This document shows positions 14,610-62,737 of a stretch of 64,000 nt of DNA, one piece after another. The DNA lies in the sequence record NC_054906.1; one strand, written 5' to 3'. Each line of letters opens with the position of its first letter. The first letter of the stretch is position 1. The notes beneath the pieces are model-generated. The model was not told the DNA's origin, ran no database searches, and saw nothing but the letters and a program-made list of their open reading frames with translations. The stretch comes from Enterobacteria phage RB18. Both the position numbers and the translations under genes were made by a program.

Positions 14610-15704
14610 ATGGCAATTGTTAAAGAAATAACTGCTGATTTAATTAAAAAGTCCGGTGAAACAATTTCAGCCGGACAGAGTACTAAATCAGAAGTAGGAA
14701 CTAAAACATACACAGCCCAGTTTCCAACTGGGCGTGCTAGTGGTAATGACACTACAGGGGACTTCCAGGTAACAGATCTATATAAGAATGGATTATTATT
14801 TACTGCATACAATATGTCATCTAGGGATTCTGGAAGTCTTAGAACGATGAGATCTAACTACTCTTCTTCATCTTCGAGTATTTTACGTACAGCCAGAAAC
14901 ACTATCAGTAATACAGTATCAAAACTATCAAATGGACTAATATCAGATAATAATTCAGGAACAATAAGTAAAGTTCCTGTTGCAAATATTCTTTTACCTA
15001 GATCTAAATCTGACGTCGATACGTCATCACATAGATTTAATGATGTTCAAGATAGTCTTATTACAAAAGGCGGAGGAACTGCTACGGGCGTATTAAGTAA
15101 TATGGCTTCAACTGCAGTATTTGGCGCGCTTGAAAGTATAACACAAGGAATAATGGCTGATAATAATGAACAGATTTATACGACAGCCAGAAGTATGTAT
15201 GGAGGTGCTGAAAATAGAACTAAAGTGTTTACATGGGATTTGACTCCACGTTCAACAGAAGATTTAATGGCTATTATTAATATCTATCAATATTTTAACT
15301 ATTTTTCTTATGGTGAAACGGGTAAATCTCAATATGCTGCTGAAATAAAAGGATATTTAGATGAGTGGTATCGTTCTACATTTATTGAACCATTAACGCC
15401 AGAAGACGCGATTAAAAACAAGACGTTATTTGAAAAAATGACATCGAGTTTAACGAACGTTCTTGTAGTTTCAAACCCGACAATTTGGATGGTGAAAAAC
15501 TTTGGTGCAACTTCTAAATTTGATGGAAAGACTGAAGTATTCGGTCCATGCCAAATACAGAGTATTAGATTTGATAAAACACCAAATGGTAACTTTAATG
15601 GATTAGCTATTGCTCCTAACCTTCCAAGTTCTTTTACACTCGAGATTACTATGAGAGAGATTATTACGTTAAACCGTGCTTCTTTATATACGGGGACTTT
15701 CTAA
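14610..15704 (+). CDS. 48: Baseplate-tail tube junction protein gp48
   Basis: 364 aa, synteny. Confidence 0.8.
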   Translation: MAIVKEITADLIKKSGETISAGQSTKSEVGTKTYTAQFPTGRASGNDTTGDFQVTDLYKNGLLFTAYNMSSRDSGSLRTMRSNYSSSSSSILRTARNTISNTVSKLSNGLISDNNSGTISKVPVANILLPRSKSDVDTSSHRFNDVQDSLITKGGGTATGVLSNMASTAVFGALESITQGIMADNNEQIYTTARSMYGGAENRTKVFTWDLTPRSTEDLMAIINIYQYFNYFSYGETGKSQYAAEIKGYLDEWYRSTFIEPLTPEDAIKNKTLFEKMTSSLTNVLVVSNPTIWMVKNFGATSKFDGKTEVFGPCQIQSIRFDKTPNGNFNGLAIAPNLPSSFTLEITMREIITLNRASLYTGTF

Positions 15705-16669: not shown

Positions 16670-16673
16670 CAAT

Positions 16674-16699
16674 GGGGACCGAAAGGTCCCCATATTTTT
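16674..16699. terminator. Bidirectional terminator between gene 54 and the alt-region ORF
   Basis: ggggacc-GAAA-ggtcccc followed by T-run. Confidence 0.7.
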
Positions 16700-16988
16700 A
16701 TTTACGGAATGAAATAAAAGCAGCAACTGAAGCAACAGAGGTTTCTTCAATATAAACTTCAATTTTTACCGGAGCTTCTGACTCAAATTTACCTGTTACT
16801 ACACCCTGAAAAATACTTTCAGTCTGTTCTGGCTTTGAAAAATTTTCAGAAGGAAAAATTCCGAACTTTTTATCTGTTCCAAAAATTTTAATAAATTCAT
16901 CGTAAACTGCTTCATTAAAAGCATTATCAGCAGGAATAACGCCTTCAACTACAAGTTCTTGACCTAAAAAGCGCAAAGAAGATTTCAT
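16698..16988 (-). CDS. Hypothetical early protein (alt.-3 position)
   Basis: 96 aa ORF with SD; preceded by conserved early promoter. Confidence 0.5.
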   Translation of the reverse strand: MKSSLRFLGQELVVEGVIPADNAFNEAVYDEFIKIFGTDKKFGIFPSENFSKPEQTESIFQGVVTGKFESEAPVKIEVYIEETSVASVAAFISFRK

Positions 16989-17019
16989 TTTGTGTTCCTC
17001 ATGTTATGTCAGTAAGACT

Positions 17020-17049
17020 ACTATAACACAATATGAGGGACTTGTAAAC
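17020..17049 (-). promoter_or_regulatory. T4-type early promoter with conserved leader
   Basis: Minus strand GTTTACA, 17 nt, TATAGT; roughly 55-nt block nearly identical to 32145-32188. Confidence 0.55.
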
Positions 17050-19106
17050 TACATTTTGAACTTTTTAGACATTCCGTTGATGTTAACCAAAGAAGCTAAG
17101 ATTTGAGAAACTTCGTTTTCCTCTTCTTTTGATTCTTCTACAAGGAATTGATTAAATCCAGCCATTGGACGAACTTCTCCGGTTTCCATTAGATAGTCAC
17201 CATCATATACTGATTCTTCTAATTGTTCAGAAGGAGGAACGATTGTACCTTCGATTAGATACTTGTTATAAGCAGTTTCTTTCATAAAGTAAGTACTTAC
17301 TTTATTAATCTTCAGTAAAATTCCACGCGGTAGAATAACTTCAGCTTCTGATGGAAATCCTGTTAAATGACCTGGAACGATAACTTTGATTCGCTCAGCT
17401 CCTTTAATTACCATACCCACGCTAGTTTCAGCATCTTCATTAGCATATGTAGAATGACTACCCATATGCATCAAATCTTCTGCATCAACAGAACCTTCTC
17501 CTTCACCAGAAAATACTGCGCCGGAATCATCTAGAGCCATATAGTTTTTACCATGCTCACCGAAGATATTTGGTTTAAGTGATGTCGATACGAAGTTCTT
17601 GAAATAGAACATTTTGTTTTCAATGTTATGACGCAAAGTTTTAAAGGTAACTTCTTGTCCACGATAAAGCGTAGTTCCTGGAGGAAGAACTGAACCTTTA
17701 GCGAATGCAGAATCCAACGTCTCGATGTGCTTAATAGCTCGTTCCATATATTCTTCACGGGTAGAATCTGGTTTACCCAAAAGGAACGAGTTCATTTCAA
17801 CATATGAATCTGCACAATAATCTTCAATTACATCAGATTCAGCTTGAGTTAATCCTTTTGGAGTTACTTCGGTGCTTGCGTATTCATATGCCTGAGCAGC
17901 AGATTCATTAATCAATTTATAAATGCCATTCATGACAAATTGAATAATAGCTGTCTTTTCATCTGGCGTAGCTTTAGAACCTTTAACCAAATCATTGATA
18001 ATTTTCTTAATAACATCAAAGCTATTAGAAATATTAATATCAGCAAGATCGCTTAAAATTTTATCAGTTTTATAATCAAAGAATTCTTTATTCTTTAAAT
18101 ATTCTTGAGAACCTTGATATGTTATATCGCTCTGCAACTTGATGGATGGATCACGTAAACGTGCATGGGCTAATGCAATATGATTTCGGAAGTTTTCTAG
18201 TTCATAATCGCTAGATTTAAAACGAGAAGCACTCCTCATACCACCGATAGCTCCTTTGTTGAAGTTTGAACCAATCTGAATAACGCCAGAGTTCATTGGT
18301 CCTTCTGCTTTATATACCGGAACTTTGGATTCAAACTCTTGATATTTCTTAGCAGCGAAGCTATCACCCTGAAGTGAAGCATCAACAGTAGAATATTGAG
18401 CTTGTGCTGCTAATCGACGACTAATTTTAGTTTTCTGAATAACAGCTTGGTCAGTGCGCTTATCATTTTCTAAAGCAATAGAAGCAGCAACTGCGACAGC
18501 TTTAGGAACAGCATTACCTGTTTTAACGTCTACATAAACATCACCAACCTTTGATTCAACTTTTGTGAATAACTCAGCTGAAATAGGAGGTACACCTGGA
18601 ATGTCTTCTAAATTGGCATTTTTACGGTAAACCATAATATATGCATATTTCTTATCATAGTCCCAGATTTCCTTTAAAAGAACATATCGGCCTGCTCCTT
18701 TAGTACGTACTAAACGGTCAGCAATAACTTGCATTTGACGAGCAGCGCCATTTGTTTTACTCTTTAGTACGCGGAATAAGCATGCATCAATTTTATACTG
18801 TTTCATTGTTTGAAGAGCAGTATCAAAAACAGCATTAATGACGCCAATTGGATTTCCACCCAAGTTTTTAAGCTTAACTAATGATAGTTTCTCATTAACA
18901 CCTATCATTACGATATGCATCATTTTGTCGCCTGGCTTAACGTTTTTATTCGTATCACCGCCAGAGGTGTATGTACAAAATCTAAATCCGGGGAGAACGC
19001 TTTCTTCACCGGCTTGAATAGCAAAAATTTGTGGTATTTTATGCTTAGGATTTAAGTTAACAACCGGCGCCGAAGCGCCGTCAAATAATTCTGTAATAAG
19101 TTCCAT
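17049..19106 (-). CDS. Alt-like mono-ADP-ribosyltransferase, second paralog (685 aa)
   Basis: N-terminal ~230 aa near-identical to neighbouring Alt; FVSTSL and EAEVILPRG ART motifs. Confidence 0.75.
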   Translation of the reverse strand: MELITELFDGASAPVVNLNPKHKIPQIFAIQAGEESVLPGFRFCTYTSGGDTNKNVKPGDKMMHIVMIGVNEKLSLVKLKNLGGNPIGVINAVFDTALQTMKQYKIDACLFRVLKSKTNGAARQMQVIADRLVRTKGAGRYVLLKEIWDYDKKYAYIMVYRKNANLEDIPGVPPISAELFTKVESKVGDVYVDVKTGNAVPKAVAVAASIALENDKRTDQAVIQKTKISRRLAAQAQYSTVDASLQGDSFAAKKYQEFESKVPVYKAEGPMNSGVIQIGSNFNKGAIGGMRSASRFKSSDYELENFRNHIALAHARLRDPSIKLQSDITYQGSQEYLKNKEFFDYKTDKILSDLADINISNSFDVIKKIINDLVKGSKATPDEKTAIIQFVMNGIYKLINESAAQAYEYASTEVTPKGLTQAESDVIEDYCADSYVEMNSFLLGKPDSTREEYMERAIKHIETLDSAFAKGSVLPPGTTLYRGQEVTFKTLRHNIENKMFYFKNFVSTSLKPNIFGEHGKNYMALDDSGAVFSGEGEGSVDAEDLMHMGSHSTYANEDAETSVGMVIKGAERIKVIVPGHLTGFPSEAEVILPRGILLKINKVSTYFMKETAYNKYLIEGTIVPPSEQLEESVYDGDYLMETGEVRPMAGFNQFLVEESKEEENEVSQILASLVNINGMSKKFKM

Positions 19107-19109
19107 GAT

Positions 19110-21206
19110 TTATCCTTGAACGAACTTGTAAGGCATGTTTGTAATATCTATGCAAGACGCAATAATTCCAAGAGATGATTCTACTTTCTGTTTAACATTT
19201 GATGAAACAAATGATGCAAAGTCAACTCTGTCTTCTATTTCAATATCACCTGTCATTGCAACCAATTCACCAGTTTCCATTAAATGGTCTCCGTCATAGA
19301 TTACCGATTCGGTGAGTTCTTCGGTGGTCATAACTTCAGCTTGAATGAGTTTTGTATTATTAGACGTGGTTCCGTCATTATTAGAAGCATCAGTTATTTT
19401 ATTAACTTTGACCATCAATCCGCGCGGTAGAATAACTTCAGCTTCTGTTGCTATTCCGAGATTTCCTGGATATACAACATTAACTTTATGAGCTCCATCA
19501 ATTGCCCATCCTATTTGAACTTTAACGTATTCAGGATTTTCTTTATACGCTCTTATTTCGCTTGGATTAATAGTTATTCCTTCTTCATTTTTATCAACTG
19601 TCAATTCATTACGAGCTTCTGGTTCTAAAAGACCAATACCAGCATGTGTAATTCCAAAACGTCCAAAAATGATAGGAGTTAAAGAAGTAGATACAAAATT
19701 TCTGAAATAGAACACTTTATTTTTAACTAGTGCTTCGTATATAGGAGCAGTCATACTTTGAGCACGATAAACTGTGATGCCTTCCGGTATGCGGTCACCA
19801 TTTTCAAAAGCTGAATCTAAGTTATTTATAGCAGATTCAATTTCTTTTTCACTCATTACATCATATCGTTCTGGATTGTAACGACCTAAAAGAAGATTAT
19901 TGATGTCAGTATATCCTGAACCGCAATATTCTCTAATGCCACGCTTTTGTGATGGAGTATATTTAGAACCATCGCGGGCAATAGTAATATCAATCATTGG
20001 ACCAGCACCAATTCCAGAAAAACTGTAAATCATTCGTTTGAGGAATTTAGTTTTTGCTGCGTTCCAGGAATTTTTAGTTATTTCTTCCCAGACTTCATCT
20101 GGTTGTCCTTTACGATTTTTATTATGATTAGCAAGCCATTTATCTTTATAATCTTCAAAGAATTGATTTACAGCTGCTGCGTATTTCTCTAAACATTTTA
20201 TTGAAGTAGTTGGTTCATTTTTAATTGCATTAAAAATTACTTCTTTAATTTTTTCTGAAACTTCACCGACTTGACTCATTGGAAAGAATTTATAATCATA
20301 GTGAAGTTCATCTGCCGTTCCTTCAGCAATAATTTTTGCTGCCTTTGTTTTAGAAGCTAATGAATTAATTCCAATTTTCATTTCTTCTGCTTCGGGAATT
20401 AAAGGTGCAGTAGCTGGTTTATTAAAATTAGCTGCTGTAGATTCATACTTCTGGAATAATTCACTTTCAAATCTAGAAGATTCCAATGACTGACTTTGTG
20501 CAATTGCTCTACGGGAAATTTTAACTTTAACGATTACAGCTTGGTCAGAACGTTTATCATTTTCTTGCGCAATAGATGCTGCAATTGCCTCATTTTTAGT
20601 TACTTGGGCTCCAGTATCTTTATTGATATAAACATCACCGACTTTCGATTCAACTTTAGTAAAGAGCTCGGTACTAATTTCCGGAACTCCTGGAATGTCT
20701 TCTAGTGATACATTTTTGCGATGTATAAGAATATATGCATACTTTTTATCGTAATCCCAGAGTTCCTTAAGAAGGACGTATCTACCACCTGAACGACTAC
20801 GGATAAGTCTATCAGCAATAACTTGAATTTGTCGAGCTTGGCCAGCAGTTTTAGACTTAAGAATACGAAGCATACAAGCATCAATTTTATATTGACGCAT
20901 TGTTTGCATTGCAACAGTAAAAACTGAATTGATATAATTAATCGGGCTTGGACCAAGACCTTTTAATTTGGCAATTGAACCTTTAGCAGTTAATGTAAAA
21001 GGAACAATATGCATCATTTTATCGCCCATCTTTAAATCGCGATTAGTATCACCTCCAGATGTATAGGTACATAAACGAAAGCCTGGTTGTTCAATTGCAT
21101 CATCAACATGAACTGAAAAAATTTGTGGTATTTTCTTCTTTGGATTTAAGTTTGTAATCGGAAGAGTAGTATCTTCGTCAAATAATTCTGTAATAAGTTC
21201 CATCAT
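19110..21206 (-). CDS. alt: Alt ADP-ribosyltransferase (capsid-packaged, 698 aa)
   Basis: FVSTSL (STS) and EAEVILPRG (ExE) motifs; late promoter upstream; T4 alt position next to ligase. Confidence 0.8.
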   Translation of the reverse strand: MMELITELFDEDTTLPITNLNPKKKIPQIFSVHVDDAIEQPGFRLCTYTSGGDTNRDLKMGDKMMHIVPFTLTAKGSIAKLKGLGPSPINYINSVFTVAMQTMRQYKIDACMLRILKSKTAGQARQIQVIADRLIRSRSGGRYVLLKELWDYDKKYAYILIHRKNVSLEDIPGVPEISTELFTKVESKVGDVYINKDTGAQVTKNEAIAASIAQENDKRSDQAVIVKVKISRRAIAQSQSLESSRFESELFQKYESTAANFNKPATAPLIPEAEEMKIGINSLASKTKAAKIIAEGTADELHYDYKFFPMSQVGEVSEKIKEVIFNAIKNEPTTSIKCLEKYAAAVNQFFEDYKDKWLANHNKNRKGQPDEVWEEITKNSWNAAKTKFLKRMIYSFSGIGAGPMIDITIARDGSKYTPSQKRGIREYCGSGYTDINNLLLGRYNPERYDVMSEKEIESAINNLDSAFENGDRIPEGITVYRAQSMTAPIYEALVKNKVFYFRNFVSTSLTPIIFGRFGITHAGIGLLEPEARNELTVDKNEEGITINPSEIRAYKENPEYVKVQIGWAIDGAHKVNVVYPGNLGIATEAEVILPRGLMVKVNKITDASNNDGTTSNNTKLIQAEVMTTEELTESVIYDGDHLMETGELVAMTGDIEIEDRVDFASFVSSNVKQKVESSLGIIASCIDITNMPYKFVQG

Positions 21207-21226: not shown

Positions 21227-21234
21227 TATTTATA
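21227..21234 (-). promoter_or_regulatory. Late promoter (TATAAATA, minus strand) for alt
   Basis: tatttata on plus strand about 21 nt upstream of the alt ATG. Confidence 0.6.
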
Positions 21235-31283: not shown

Positions 31284-31633
31284 TTAGAAAGGTCCTGGAT
31301 GTCTTCTGCGAACTTGTTGAAGGAGTTGTTGATTTGTTTTTCAACCAATCCTGGCTTATGAGCCACCACATCCGCCTTCTTTGCGTCTTTGCGCAGCTTT
31401 TCATTTTCACGCTCAATAGCAGCAATTGCCTCACGATTTTTATTATTCATCGCATCAATATAATTATACTGAATTCGCAAATTATTTAATGCTAAAGCGT
31501 TTTCATTGGCCGTTTTTGTAATTTCTACAACAGACGTTTCTAATCTTTCAATTTTATTTTTTAAAATTAAAGAAGTTCCGCCCAATGCAATTACAATTAA
31601 TAACAAGCCTGCTGTCGTATTACTTAATTGCAT
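31280..31633 (-). CDS. Inner-membrane spanin (i-spanin)
   Basis: N-terminal TMD followed by coiled-coil periplasmic domain. Confidence 0.6.
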   Translation of the reverse strand: MQLSNTTAGLLLIVIALGGTSLILKNKIERLETSVVEITKTANENALALNNLRIQYNYIDAMNNKNREAIAAIERENEKLRKDAKKADVVAHKPGLVEKQINNSFNKFAEDIQDLSK

Positions 31634-32130
31634 AAAGTTTTAATAACCTCTATAATATCGTCTTGAGAAAGACCGTTAATTAAAATATGATGTTCAGCCG
31701 GAGATTTAGAAATTTTAAAGCATGCCTCAACATCTTCTGCCATATCCGATGCACTACGATTTGGATTACTAATACCAAGGCGGTGTTTTCCCGTCAAAGG
31801 ATTAACGATGATATAGCATTTGCAGCTATTGATATGAACATTGGGTTGAGTCTGATTAATGAACACTTCACAATCATACTTAGCGAGTTGATTTTCTAAA
31901 AAGACTTTCATCTCTTCAACCGCATCAGGAAGCATATCACGGGCTTGCTCAAGACGACGATTTCGATATTCTTTAATGGTCGTTTTCCGCTTGACTTGCT
32001 TTGCTAAATCTTTCTTAAGATCGGTGATATATCCAACTCGACGATTTCCTTTGAATACAGAAATCCCATCTGTAGTATCACCGTATGCTTCAACGACCAT
32101 TTCAGTAGTAATAAGCTGTAAATCCATCAT
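31624..32130 (-). CDS. alc: Alc-like protein (host transcription inhibitor on C-containing DNA)
   Basis: 168 aa; position between rnlA and the spanins as T4 alc. Confidence 0.55.
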   Translation of the reverse strand: MMDLQLITTEMVVEAYGDTTDGISVFKGNRRVGYITDLKKDLAKQVKRKTTIKEYRNRRLEQARDMLPDAVEEMKVFLENQLAKYDCEVFINQTQPNVHINSCKCYIIVNPLTGKHRLGISNPNRSASDMAEDVEACFKISKSPAEHHILINGLSQDDIIEVIKTLCN

Positions 32131-32158
32131 AAAGTCCTCATGTTATGTCAGTAAGACT

Positions 32159-32188
32159 ACTGTAACACAACACGAGGGACTTGTAAAC
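32159..32188 (-). promoter_or_regulatory. T4-type early promoter with conserved leader (copy of 17020-17049)
   Basis: Minus strand GTTTACA, 17 nt, TACAGT, then shared leader CTTACTGACATAACATGAGGA. Confidence 0.5.
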
Positions 32189-33806: not shown

Positions 33807-34985
33807 TTAAAAATATTTTTTAAAACTCATCATAACTTTATCATCAACATCATTATCAATCTGTGCAACAAGGTAAGATGACAGTTCTACTTCTTGCGGT
33901 GCAGATTGAACATTATCAGAATTAAGATATTCACGAATCCAAGGATATGGATGTTTAACCGGAGCATCGGTAATTGGGCATGGAAGACCGCACTGTTTCA
34001 TACGAGATACAGTTAAGTAATCAATAAAGCTCCACATGCTATTTGTATTTAATCCAGGAACATCGCCATCTTTAAATAAATGAACTGCCCAATCTTTTTC
34101 TTGGCGGTTAACTTCCATGAAAATATCAACTGCTTCTTGTTCACACTCTTGAGCAATTTTAACCCATTCATCGCCATCAGTACCAGATTGAAGTTGACGA
34201 ATAATATATTGAGTGCCTTTAAGGTGAAGCTGTTCATCGCGTGCAATGAACTTCATAATCTTGGCATTACCTTCCATGATTTCCATGTTCTTATGGAAGT
34301 TAAAGGTACATGCGAAAGATACATAAAAACGAATAGCTTCCAATGCGTTGATTACATGCAAACAGAGGTAAAGAGATTTCATTAGCTCACGCTTCCAATA
34401 TGTCTCATGCTCAATAGCATCTTCAATAACGTCTTCGTCTGCATTAATTTCTTTTTGGTATTCGATATCAGCTTTAGCGTTTTCCCAATAACGAGTTTTA
34501 ATCAGAACATCATCATAATAACGTCCAATGGATTCAGCACGTTTCATAATAGCTTCATCTAATACAATTTCATCAAATACCTTCGATGGATCAGTATAAA
34601 GATTTCGCATGATATGTGTATATGAACGGCTGTGAATAGTTTCACTAAAAGTCCACGTAGCAACCCATGTATCAAGGCTTGGGTCTGAAATTAATGACAT
34701 AAGTACAGCAGACGGCGCACGACCCTGAATGCTATCCAAAAGTGATTGATACTTCAAGTTATTAGTAAAAATATCTTGCTGATACTGAGGAAGCTTGTTA
34801 AATTGTGCAGCATCCATCATCAAGTTTACTTCTTCAGGACGCCAGAAAAATGACAATTGCTTTTCGGTTAAATCTTCAAAAACTTTATGACGTTGAATAT
34901 CATAACGCGCAATACCAAGACCTGAACCAAAAAACATAGGTTCTTTTAAAACATCAACTGGATTTGTATTAAAAACTGTGCTCAT
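33807..34985 (-). CDS. nrdB: Ribonucleotide reductase beta subunit, uninterrupted
   Basis: 392 aa continuous ORF with ferritin-like di-iron motifs; no intron. Confidence 0.9.
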   Translation of the reverse strand: MSTVFNTNPVDVLKEPMFFGSGLGIARYDIQRHKVFEDLTEKQLSFFWRPEEVNLMMDAAQFNKLPQYQQDIFTNNLKYQSLLDSIQGRAPSAVLMSLISDPSLDTWVATWTFSETIHSRSYTHIMRNLYTDPSKVFDEIVLDEAIMKRAESIGRYYDDVLIKTRYWENAKADIEYQKEINADEDVIEDAIEHETYWKRELMKSLYLCLHVINALEAIRFYVSFACTFNFHKNMEIMEGNAKIMKFIARDEQLHLKGTQYIIRQLQSGTDGDEWVKIAQECEQEAVDIFMEVNRQEKDWAVHLFKDGDVPGLNTNSMWSFIDYLTVSRMKQCGLPCPITDAPVKHPYPWIREYLNSDNVQSAPQEVELSSYLVAQIDNDVDDKVMMSFKKYF

Positions 34986-41543: not shown

Positions 41544-41575
41544 GTATAGTACCATGGAAGAACAGGGATGTAAAC
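41544..41575 (-). promoter_or_regulatory. T4-type early promoter
   Basis: Minus strand GTTTACA, 17 nt, GGTACTATAC. Confidence 0.5.
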
Positions 41576-58715: not shown

Positions 58716-58747
58716 GTATAGTACCACAGTATGCTTTGGTTGTAAAC
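58716..58747 (-). promoter_or_regulatory. T4-type early promoter for motA
   Basis: Minus strand GTTTACA, 17 nt, GGTACTATAC. Confidence 0.55.
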
Positions 58748-58776
58748 CGTTTTGTGAAAAAATTTTAAAATAAAAA

Positions 58777-58796
58777 GGGAGAGCCGAGGCTCTCCC
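58777..58796 (-). terminator. Intrinsic terminator
   Basis: gggagagcc-GAG-gctctccc followed by T-run on minus strand. Confidence 0.65.
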
Positions 58797-61852: not shown

Positions 61853-61884
61853 TAATAGTACCACGGAAGAACAGTCTTGTAAAC
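61853..61884 (-). promoter_or_regulatory. T4-type early promoter
   Basis: Minus strand GTTTACA, 17 nt, GGTACTATTAC. Confidence 0.45.
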
Positions 61885-62131: not shown

Positions 62132-62163
62132 GTATAGTACCACGGTCCTTGTGGTATGTAAAC
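62132..62163 (-). promoter_or_regulatory. T4-type early promoter
   Basis: Minus strand GTTTACA, 17 nt, GGTACTATAC. Confidence 0.5.
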
Positions 62164-62179
62164 TGTTTTGTGAAATTTT

Positions 62180-62737
62180 TTAAATGGAAAGATACCATCC
62201 GTTGTAGTTGCTTTTTCGCACTACCTTACGAAGGTCTTCTCTGTCACCGATGAACTTCGGAGTGTACTGGATGACACCTGGATGAATTTCTTTAGTGTTG
62301 AATATAATTATACAGTCAGCGACTTGATGATTTAGAATGGGCCCTAGATTTATTCCAGAACCGTATGGATACTCTCCGCTGCATCCTGTTGTTACCGAAA
62401 TCCAACGTGAGTCAGTTTGATGTGTCTTAACTTCTACACGAAGCCCACAGTATTTTGGATGTGCTAAAACATCCCATGCATATGTGTACGGATCATCGAC
62501 ATCTTCTTGGCCTTTATTGACATATCCGCTTAGCCAATCTGCTACAAAAAACTCTGCGTACACAGCGATACGGCATCTTTCGATAACTTCTGCCTTATCC
62601 TGATTTGGGTTTTGTTTTAAAGAGTATCTTACAGTATCAGCAATTTTGACCTTCATTTCATTGGTTAAATCGCTGTTCGATAGAGTAAATGTCGGAATCT
62701 GAAATAGTCTCTGTAACCCAGGATTCGTTTTCTGCAT
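62180..62737 (-). CDS. denB: Endonuclease IV
   Basis: 185 aa, length and position as T4 denB. Confidence 0.65.
   Translation of the reverse strand: MQKTNPGLQRLFQIPTFTLSNSDLTNEMKVKIADTVRYSLKQNPNQDKAEVIERCRIAVYAEFFVADWLSGYVNKGQEDVDDPYTYAWDVLAHPKYCGLRVEVKTHQTDSRWISVTTGCSGEYPYGSGINLGPILNHQVADCIIIFNTKEIHPGVIQYTPKFIGDREDLRKVVRKSNYNGWYLSI

Follow-up and report, generated by a model that had tools for sequence, protein, structure and literature searches.

The window analyzed here, a stretch of 64,000 nt from Enterobacteria phage RB18 (NC_054906.1), carries on its minus strand two nearly identical copies of a 54-nt block, one at 17049-16996 and the other at 32188-32135. The first precedes a 96-aa open reading frame (ORF) and the second a 168-aa ORF, and the two genes are unrelated, the former belonging to Pfam DUF5498 (T4 Alt.-3) and the latter to Pfam ALC. 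Alc is a host-transcription terminator. Each block makes up the entire intergenic gap ahead of its gene on the strand of the early genes, and the region matches many genomes of Tequatrovirus, the genus to which the window belongs, at 97-98% identity. The blocks, referred to below as cassette copies, and the genes behind them are located as follows.

16996-17049, minus strand: cassette copy 1, ahead of alt.-3 (-35 TTTACA at 17048-17043; -10 TATAGT at 17025-17020; predicted +1 at about 17013; Shine-Dalgarno sequence GAGGA at 17000-16996)
32135-32188, minus strand: cassette copy 2, between rnlA and alc (-35 TTTACA at 32187-32182; -10 TACAGT at 32164-32159; predicted +1 at about 32152; Shine-Dalgarno sequence GAGGA at 32139-32135)
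16698-16988, minus strand: alt.-3 homologue of 96 aa (DUF5498), downstream of copy 1 and served by it
31624-32130, minus strand: alc (Pfam ALC), with in-frame ATGs at 32130 and 32127, the second being the start in the T4 annotation

The block has the sequence GTTTACAAGTCCCTC(A/G)T(A/G)TTGTGTTA(T/C)AGTAGTCTTACTGACATAACATGAGGA, and a search of the window with this degenerate pattern returned exactly these two sites, while 100 dinucleotide-preserving shuffles returned no match, so that none is expected by chance. A repeat finder likewise identified a two-copy family of 54 nt with 94% identity (51/54 positions). The similarity stops sharply, on the 5' side at the G of GTTTAC and on the 3' side at the last A of GAGGA, and the loci are unrelated beyond these points. 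Copy 1 ends 7 nt before the ATG of the 96-aa ORF and copy 2 ends 4 nt before the first ATG of the 168-aa ORF; upstream, the stop codon TAG of an alt paralogue (17051-17049) overlaps the first G of copy 1 (block position 1), and a TAA sits 3 nt ahead of copy 2. An earlier reading made from the sequence alone (hereafter, the sequence-only reading) had proposed a promoter and leader duplicated in front of two unrelated genes, and the duplication is present at both of the sites that it named, although the ends it gave (16989 and 32131) overshoot the shared block by a few bases toward the start codons. Within both leaders an AUG (CAUGAGGA) also opens a mini-ORF (17003-16986 and 32142-32128, minus strand), 5 codons long in copy 1 and 4 in copy 2, whose UGA overlaps the main start (AUGA). 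This mini-ORF is probably a coincidence, since no Shine-Dalgarno (SD) sequence lies ahead of its AUG.

The genome of T4 (AF158101) has the same pair of blocks ahead of alt.-3 and alc, with a single-base difference between them (53/54). A 71-nt query matched 594 phage records; in 497 of them at least 80% of the query is covered at some place, and two such places are present in each Tequatrovirus record among the 40 matches listed. Given this distribution, which puts two copies in about 500 sequenced relatives, and the occurrence in T4, the pair is a fixed feature of T4 and the genus and is not peculiar to the RB18 genome.

Both copies have the anatomy of a T4-type early promoter. Each consists of TTTACA, a 17-nt spacer with TGT at its end, and then TATAGT (alt.-3) or TACAGT (alc), followed by a leader of about 17 nt and the SD sequence GAGGA. 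The hexamers, the 17-nt spacing, and the extended -10 (TGn) of the T4 early-promoter consensus are thus matched by both, and the record of Yersinia phage fPS-65 labels each of the two sites a “predicted early promoter.” The T4 late-promoter motif (TATAAATA) is absent from the block, as are the RegB motif (GGAG), the RegA AU-rich operator, and the MotA box. We are highly confident that both blocks are early promoters and paralogous copies of one cassette.

A scan of the window for early promoters (TTTAC(A/T)-N16-18-TAnnnT) identified 17 minus-strand and 4 plus-strand sites, a bias toward the strand of the early genes, and about 14 of the minus-strand sites are intergenic, preceded by G, and TG-extended, which fits the T4 early promoter class as described in the literature (PMC2988021). 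When 14 early-promoter-like sites were compared over 54 nt from GTTTAC, the 91 pairwise comparisons gave a mean identity of 25.6 (sd 5.9); the focal pair reached 51/54, and the next-best pair 45 (62162/58746). The excess includes the spacer, a part in which T4 early promoters normally disagree but the focal copies agree at 15/17 positions. With the canonical T4 early promoters the focal pair has in common GTTTACA, the 17-nt spacer, the TG-extended -10, the strand, and the position relative to the gene. However, the focal copies are accompanied neither by the TTTTTTCACAAAAC element that canonical promoters have upstream nor by their downstream ACAACTATCAACTAC motif; the region 5' of the -35, where an A/T-rich UP element would lie, reads AAAAAGTTCAAAATGTA (alt.-3) or CCCAGAAGGATACTAAGCT (alc), the latter not being A/T-rich. 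The focal pair also differs from the canonical promoters in its weaker -10 (TATAGT or TACAGT), in its SD sequence (GAGGA instead of GGAG), and in a spacer that is conserved and complementary to its own leader.

This complementarity extends over nearly the whole block. Positions 1-9 hold the -35, and positions 10-54 form an imperfect inverted repeat that folds into a hairpin of 19-22 bp, in which the spacer (positions 10-24, UCCCUCGUGUUGUGU) pairs with the leader and SD sequence (ACAUAACAUGAGGA; partner positions 41-54, ACATAACATGAGGA) and positions 27-31, comprising part of the -10 and the next bases, pair with positions 36-40 around a loop at positions 32-35. The boundaries of the repeat can be understood because the block is exactly the -35 plus the hairpin, and the conservation across both spacer and leader because the block is an inverted repeat. 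The -10 lies near the top of the 5' arm, and the predicted +1, placed at the usual distance of 7 nt from the -10, is A37, the first base of the 3' arm. In the predicted fold of read-through RNA, the GAGGA pairs with UCC(C)UC.

16996-17040, minus strand: hairpin of copy 1, the 5' arm being the spacer and -10, the loop 17018-17015, and the 3' arm the leader and SD sequence
32132-32182, minus strand: hairpin of copy 2, with the 19 pairs of copy 1 and an AAG/CUU extension beyond the shared block at the 3' end

Folding of 76 nt of read-through RNA, with z-scores against 200 shuffles, gave the following minimum free energies (MFE).

Window alc read-through RNA: MFE -28.6 kcal/mol, z -5.8, 0/200 shuffles fold as well
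Window alt.-3 read-through RNA: MFE -17.2 kcal/mol, z -2.3, 4/200 shuffles fold as well
T4 alt.-3 read-through RNA: MFE -23.0 kcal/mol, z -4.9, 0/200 shuffles fold as well
T4 alc read-through RNA: MFE -26.2 kcal/mol, z -4.1, 0/200 shuffles fold as well

RNA that begins at the predicted +1 is unstructured, at -2.5 kcal/mol (z +0.2) for copy 1 and -4.6 kcal/mol (z -0.6) for copy 2. The in silico probability that the SD sequence is unpaired is 0.00 in the read-through RNA versus 0.41-0.71 in the cassette's own transcript. The cassette hairpin is not a described RNA family, as Rfam at gathering thresholds gave no match anywhere in the window.

The pairing is specific to the cognate halves of the promoter. 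In a swap control, the 5' half (-35 through -10) of each of 13 early promoters in the window was joined to the 3' half of every other, and the cognate combination ranked first for both focal copies (-25.7 against a mean of -9.4, and -17.2 against a mean of -8.3). The own 5' half was the best partner (rank 1 of 12 or 13) for 7 of the 13 promoters (61883, 40583, 32187, 28881, 26004, 25612, and 17048), in all of which the inverted repeat encloses the -10, and in five of these (61883, 32187, 28881, 26004, and 17048) the SD sequence pairs with the promoter half at a probability of at least 0.9. The promoters at 61883, 26004, and 28881 are thus further, independent instances of the same architecture in the window. 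The remaining six promoters, including the putative motA promoter and most of the second promoter family described below, showed no cognate effect. The cognate-specific folding in 7/13 places the focal pair in a hairpin-type subclass of early promoters.

The second family, GTTTACA-N15-GGTACTAT, has four minus-strand copies where none is expected.

61855-61884, minus strand: second-family early promoter (61883), with its own spacer-SD pairing (-22.7 kcal/mol, z -4.3)
58718-58747, minus strand: second-family early promoter ahead of a motA-like gene (protein start MSKVTYI), no hairpin
62134-62163, minus strand: second-family early promoter in the ndd-denB region, no significant hairpin
41546-41575, minus strand: second-family early promoter, no significant hairpin

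The recurrence of this family at four sites, as the sequence-only reading had it, is real; the gap that follows GTTTACA is, however, 15 nt (a 17-nt spacer from TTTACA to TACTAT) and not 17, and the copy at 61855 reads GGTACTATTA and not GGTACTATAC. The family represents the mainstream early consensus, with the upstream TTTTTTCACAAAAC element and the downstream ACAACTATCAACTAC motif. Its member at 61883 has the same architecture as the focal pair in a different sequence, and another appears to be the motA promoter, judging from the N-terminal sequence of the downstream protein, which we take to be that of T4 MotA. This putative motA promoter (58718-58780, minus strand) and the ndd-denB promoter (62134-62195, minus strand) have 45/54 nt in common, with an identical upstream element (TTTCACAAAAC), 24/24 identical nucleotides 3' of the -10, and unrelated spacers, which is the opposite pattern to that of the focal pair.

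Polymorphism was examined in both copies of 13 Tequatrovirus genomes, with pair counting on 16 distinct copies. In the alignment, the block boundaries are sharp, the -35 and the segment 41-54 are invariant, and the 3' arm is nearly invariant (nucleotide diversity, pi, of 0-0.015); the variable sites are 11, 12, 15, 16, 18, 27, 29, 32, 33, 34, and 40. Polymorphism is concentrated in the 4-nt loop, where three of the four positions vary (pi 0.10-0.12). Several changes within the stem preserve pairing, namely C-to-U replacements facing G (11 and 15), a G-to-A replacement facing U (16), and the alternatives U.G, C-G, and U-A at the pair 27-40. Among the 13 genomes C27 is confined to alc copies, and A29 and A32 to alt.-3 copies, but the paralogues are without a fixed difference, and the distance between them (1.81/54) is about the same as the diversity within orthologues (1.3-1.6/54). 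Recent gene conversion or concerted evolution within Tequatrovirus was rejected, as no derived variant is common to both copies of one genome, and recombinants between the two copies were not seen in these genomes. Judging from these alignments, the copies now evolve independently, and their near-identity would date from about the base of the genus or be held by constraint.

Part of the cassette is also found in another genus. In about 96 Mosigvirus records, moskry and TU01 among them, a 66-aa gene adjoining ndd, a homologue of T4 ndd.1, is preceded by the -10-to-ATG stretch of the cassette, and this leader reads TATAGTAGTCCTACTGA-AACATGAGGAACACAAAATG, including the ACACAAA tail specific to the alt.-3 copy. 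The same leader thus serves three different genes in two genera, and the alt.-3 version looks like the fuller form of the cassette. At the Mosigvirus ndd.1 homologue (moskry stretch 2484-2544) the spacer is different, the hairpin is shorter, and the SD sequence is uncovered. Pattern scans of IMG/VR returned only the same two contexts and one copy of the Mosigvirus type. The alt.-3 and alc promoters of Mosigvirus itself are unlike the Tequatrovirus cassette in sequence, yet they are each other's best match at 44/54 (~80%), tied for the top score among 28 promoter pairs, and a query from upstream of alc finds two places per Mosigvirus record. The differences between the alt.-3 and alc loci are stable between RB69 and moskry (moskry stretch 5935 and 20399). 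A matched alt.-3/alc pair was not seen in Moonvirus and Gaprivervirus. The pairing is therefore older than either genus or has arisen twice, and a matched pair of differing sequence in two genera would point to repeated copying between the loci or to selection that keeps Alc and Alt.-3 co-expressed.

In Citrobacter phage Merlin (Moonvirus), the alc leader is unrelated in sequence and has the same pairing of spacer and SD sequence (-24.7 kcal/mol, z -5.8), based on a perfect 13-bp complement between the spacer and the GGAG leader (CTCCATTTGGTTG/CAACCAAATGGAG; Merlin stretch 17348), and the Merlin alt.-3 leader has a hairpin within the spacer only. A second Merlin promoter, upstream of a gene that adjoins a gp30.7-like ORF (stretch 9224), also contains a perfect 13-bp complement (CTCCGTTGTATGT/ACATACAACGGAG), as read by eye.

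The genes upstream of the cassettes suggest from where read-through RNA could come.

21227-21234, minus strand: T4 late-promoter motif TATAAATA, 21 nt upstream of alt (19110-21206)
16672-16693, strand unassigned: GC-rich hairpin between the convergent genes alt.-3 and 54, ATGGGGACC-TTTC-GGTCCCCAT, flagged as terminator-like on both strands

Alt is a virion protein, which fits a late promoter ahead of its gene, and the late motif is the likely source of late transcripts that run through both alt genes into the alt.-3 leader. The terminator scan flagged the site at 16672-16693 as the first downstream of copy 1, with no terminator-like site before it on the path through alt and alt.-3 and none between rnlA and alc. 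Given the late motif and the lack of a terminator-like site between it and copy 1, late transcripts should cross the alt.-3 leader. The two alt paralogues are full-length tandem genes on the minus strand (17049-19106 and 19110-21206; 685 and 698 aa) with aligned repeat segments that are ~70-78% identical and one 31-nt stretch at 97%. Two full copies are also present in T6, Nami, G50, fPS-65, and Merlin; in T4 this place is occupied by the remnants alt.-1 and alt.-2 only. Copy 1 borders a variable segment of alt paralogue, alt.-1, and alt.-2. Elsewhere in the window, nrdB (33807-34985) is an uninterrupted ORF of 392 aa, and RB18 therefore lacks both the group I intron and the I-TevIII found in nrdB of T4. 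In Gaprivervirus VR20 (stretch 14623-14856), a short ORF annotated as “similar to T4 Alc” lies between rnlA and alc, with its own leader and a GC-rich hairpin upstream, and appears to be a partial duplication of the 5' end of alc.

Two known systems of T4-type phages resemble the focal blocks. Promoter-early stem-loop (PeSL) cassettes (Arbiol et al., 2010, PMC2839356; Comeau et al., 2014, PMC4122927) are defined as running from a stop codon through an AT-rich tract and an early promoter to a Shine-Dalgarno sequence and an ATG, with a stem-loop that takes one of five possible positions and a T4/PST promoter consensus of TTTACW-N17-TAYWAT (PMC2839356; PMC4122927), and a stem-loop overlapping the -10 box forms a defined subclass (PMC2839356). 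The focal blocks likewise have a sigma-70-type early promoter, a stem-loop over the -10, and the SD sequence at the 3' end; they conform to the T4/PST consensus and are repeated ahead of unrelated genes. The upstream stop codon, the GAGGA ending the block, and the ATG 4-7 nt later also match the PeSL layout, except that the AT-rich tract is missing at alc, and the occurrence of the 3' part ahead of a third gene in another genus is what recombination-mediated shuffling would give. On the other hand, the focal copies lie 15 kb apart around essential genes and not around a single ORFan in a hyperplastic region, so that excision as a mini-circle would not be viable. Their stem is rich in A and T, and no U tract occurs in the shared part. 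The stem-loops of PeSLs were read as terminators and recombination sites (PMC2839356; PMC4122927), and translation is never mentioned in the 2010 paper (PMC2839356). In the focal blocks the 3' arm is the SD sequence itself, which suggests translational insulation, as opposed to the transcriptional insulation proposed for PeSLs. Cassettes of this kind have already been published, as PeSLs, the focal pair being best regarded as a new member, and a translational role would be an extension of that reading.

The second system comprises the promoter-nested ribosome-binding site hairpins established for T4 e, soc, 49, and I-TevI (PMC3014915), in which the SD sequence is paired in long transcripts, the promoter lies within the 5' arm or loop, and the transcript from the proximal promoter lacks the inhibitory arm. 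The same arrangement is predicted here, although the nested promoter of those genes is late and gives late-only translation, whereas that of the focal blocks is early and would give early-only translation.

The explanation that we consider the best, and hold to be probable, is that one T4-type early-gene cassette is present in two paralogous copies, presumably made by recombination, and that its hairpin ties translation to the cassette's own promoter. RNA initiated at that promoter would carry the 3' arm alone, such that the hairpin could not form and the ribosome-binding site would be free. RNA arriving from upstream, through rnlA in the case of alc and including late transcripts from the promoter ahead of alt in the case of alt.-3, would carry both arms, fold, and hide the SD sequence. 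Translation of Alc and Alt.-3 would in this way be tied to initiation at their own early promoters and result in early-only expression. Alc is a known early product (PMC2988021). All of the computable evidence agrees with the sequence-only reading in its proposal of an early promoter plus leader forming a portable cassette and/or carrying shared post-transcriptional control. Portability is borne out by the sharp homology boundaries and by the 3' part of the cassette ahead of the ndd.1 homologue in Mosigvirus, and the inverted repeat, which had gone unseen, gives the proposed control a concrete form. That the hairpin gates translation we judge to be an even chance or somewhat better.

Several observations weigh against such gating. 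Natural variants that break pairs occur (G18A, G16T, G40T, and G29A), with G18A in the alt.-3 copy of this window and G16T in the T6 alc copy, and G29A in T6, Nami, and G50 breaks a pair while improving the -10 to TATAAT. The alt.-3 copy of the window folds only moderately (z -2.3). Covariation is absent, with no double-sided changes and an invariant 3' arm, and as a shuffle control could not tell the observed structure from a chance one, it speaks neither for nor against the fold; without covariation, the structural support is thermodynamic only. The diversity of the block (pi 0.024-0.030) is no lower than that of the flanking coding sequence, and the near-identity of the copies could be mere close kinship within the genus. 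No significant hairpin forms in the leaders of alt.-3 and alc in Mosigvirus moskry (z +0.2 and +0.6) or in the alt.-3 leader of Gaprivervirus VR20 (z 0.0), the one of its two leaders that was folded. A mechanism missing from these orthologous leaders is not universal. The literature searched gave no 5'-end, structure-probing, or translation data for the two sites, the +1 being predicted from the position of the -10, and it gave neither a map of T4 transcription start sites nor any mention of alt.-3 (the classical T4 early-promoter tables lie outside that search).

The same lack of covariation, the Mosigvirus orthologues without a hairpin, a block no less diverse than its coding flanks, and paralogues that differ from each other about as much as orthologues do would all be expected if the structure had no function, the pair being a residue of duplication or gene conversion that shortly preceded the radiation of Tequatrovirus and the palindrome an incidental property of one promoter sequence that succeeded. 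This is unlikely in our judgment, because the z-score reaches -5.8 with 0/200 shuffles folding as well, 5'/3' complementarity is cognate-specific in 7 of 13 early promoters of the window, variation is concentrated in the loop, and the Merlin alc leader pairs its spacer with the SD sequence despite its unrelated sequence. An equally unlikely alternative is that the stem-loop acts on transcription, as a terminator or attenuator insulating the downstream gene, an activity that has been demonstrated for one PeSL stem-loop of RB49 (Arbiol et al., PMC2839356). A moderately U-rich sequence, CUUUAUGAU, follows the alc copy, but the shared block ends at GAGGA and the alt.-3 copy continues with ACACAAAAUG, without a U tract. 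Moreover, the stem is AT-rich (6 G-C among 19 pairs) and bulged, the consensus terminator scan flagged neither site, and termination would leave the coincidence of the 3' arm with the SD sequence unexplained.

Less probable still is a role in RNA processing or stability, as an RNase III-type site or a stabilizing end structure that separates the cistrons of read-through RNA. A stem of ~20 bp, mostly uninterrupted, is long enough for a double-strand-specific RNase. However, the targets of RegB, RNase E/G, and RNase LS listed in reviews of T4 post-transcriptional control include none at these sites (PMC3014915), and the SD sequence is GAGGA and not the RegB motif GGAG. The palindrome could also be a DNA operator at which a dimeric phage or host protein shuts off both promoters together, as an inverted repeat centered on the -10/+1 and common to two genes might suggest, but we regard this as very improbable. 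The inverted repeats at the same position of other early promoters differ entirely in sequence, so that there is no common recognition sequence for an operator, and the bulges and G.T pairs of the repeat, which RNA can accommodate, lack symmetry in duplex DNA.

A cassette whose hairpin licenses translation only from its own promoter remains the explanation that we prefer, and it bears on how T4-like genomes are read and used. For annotators, near-identical intergenic blocks in such genomes are regulatory cassettes and not assembly artefacts, and the cassette is a compact 54-nt part usable in phage engineering. If the hairpin acts as proposed, it would provide a simple cis rule by which some T4 early proteins (Alc and Alt.-3) are made only in the first minutes, and an early-only counterpart to the late-only hairpins of e, soc, 49, and I-TevI. 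The mobile PeSL stem-loops would gain a function that travels with the cassette, as a gene inserted anywhere would bring with it a promoter, a ribosome site, and insulation from neighboring transcription. More tentatively, and with the odds against it, about half of the T4-type early promoters may use their own spacer as an anti-Shine-Dalgarno arm, with translation licensed only by initiation there, and the alt.-3/alc pairing may have come from repeated copying or selection for co-expression. Were this the case, the stem-loops of PeSL cassettes would be translational insulators rather than terminators, and T4-type phages would have a cis-encoded way to keep genes strictly immediate-early despite the later transcripts that cross them.

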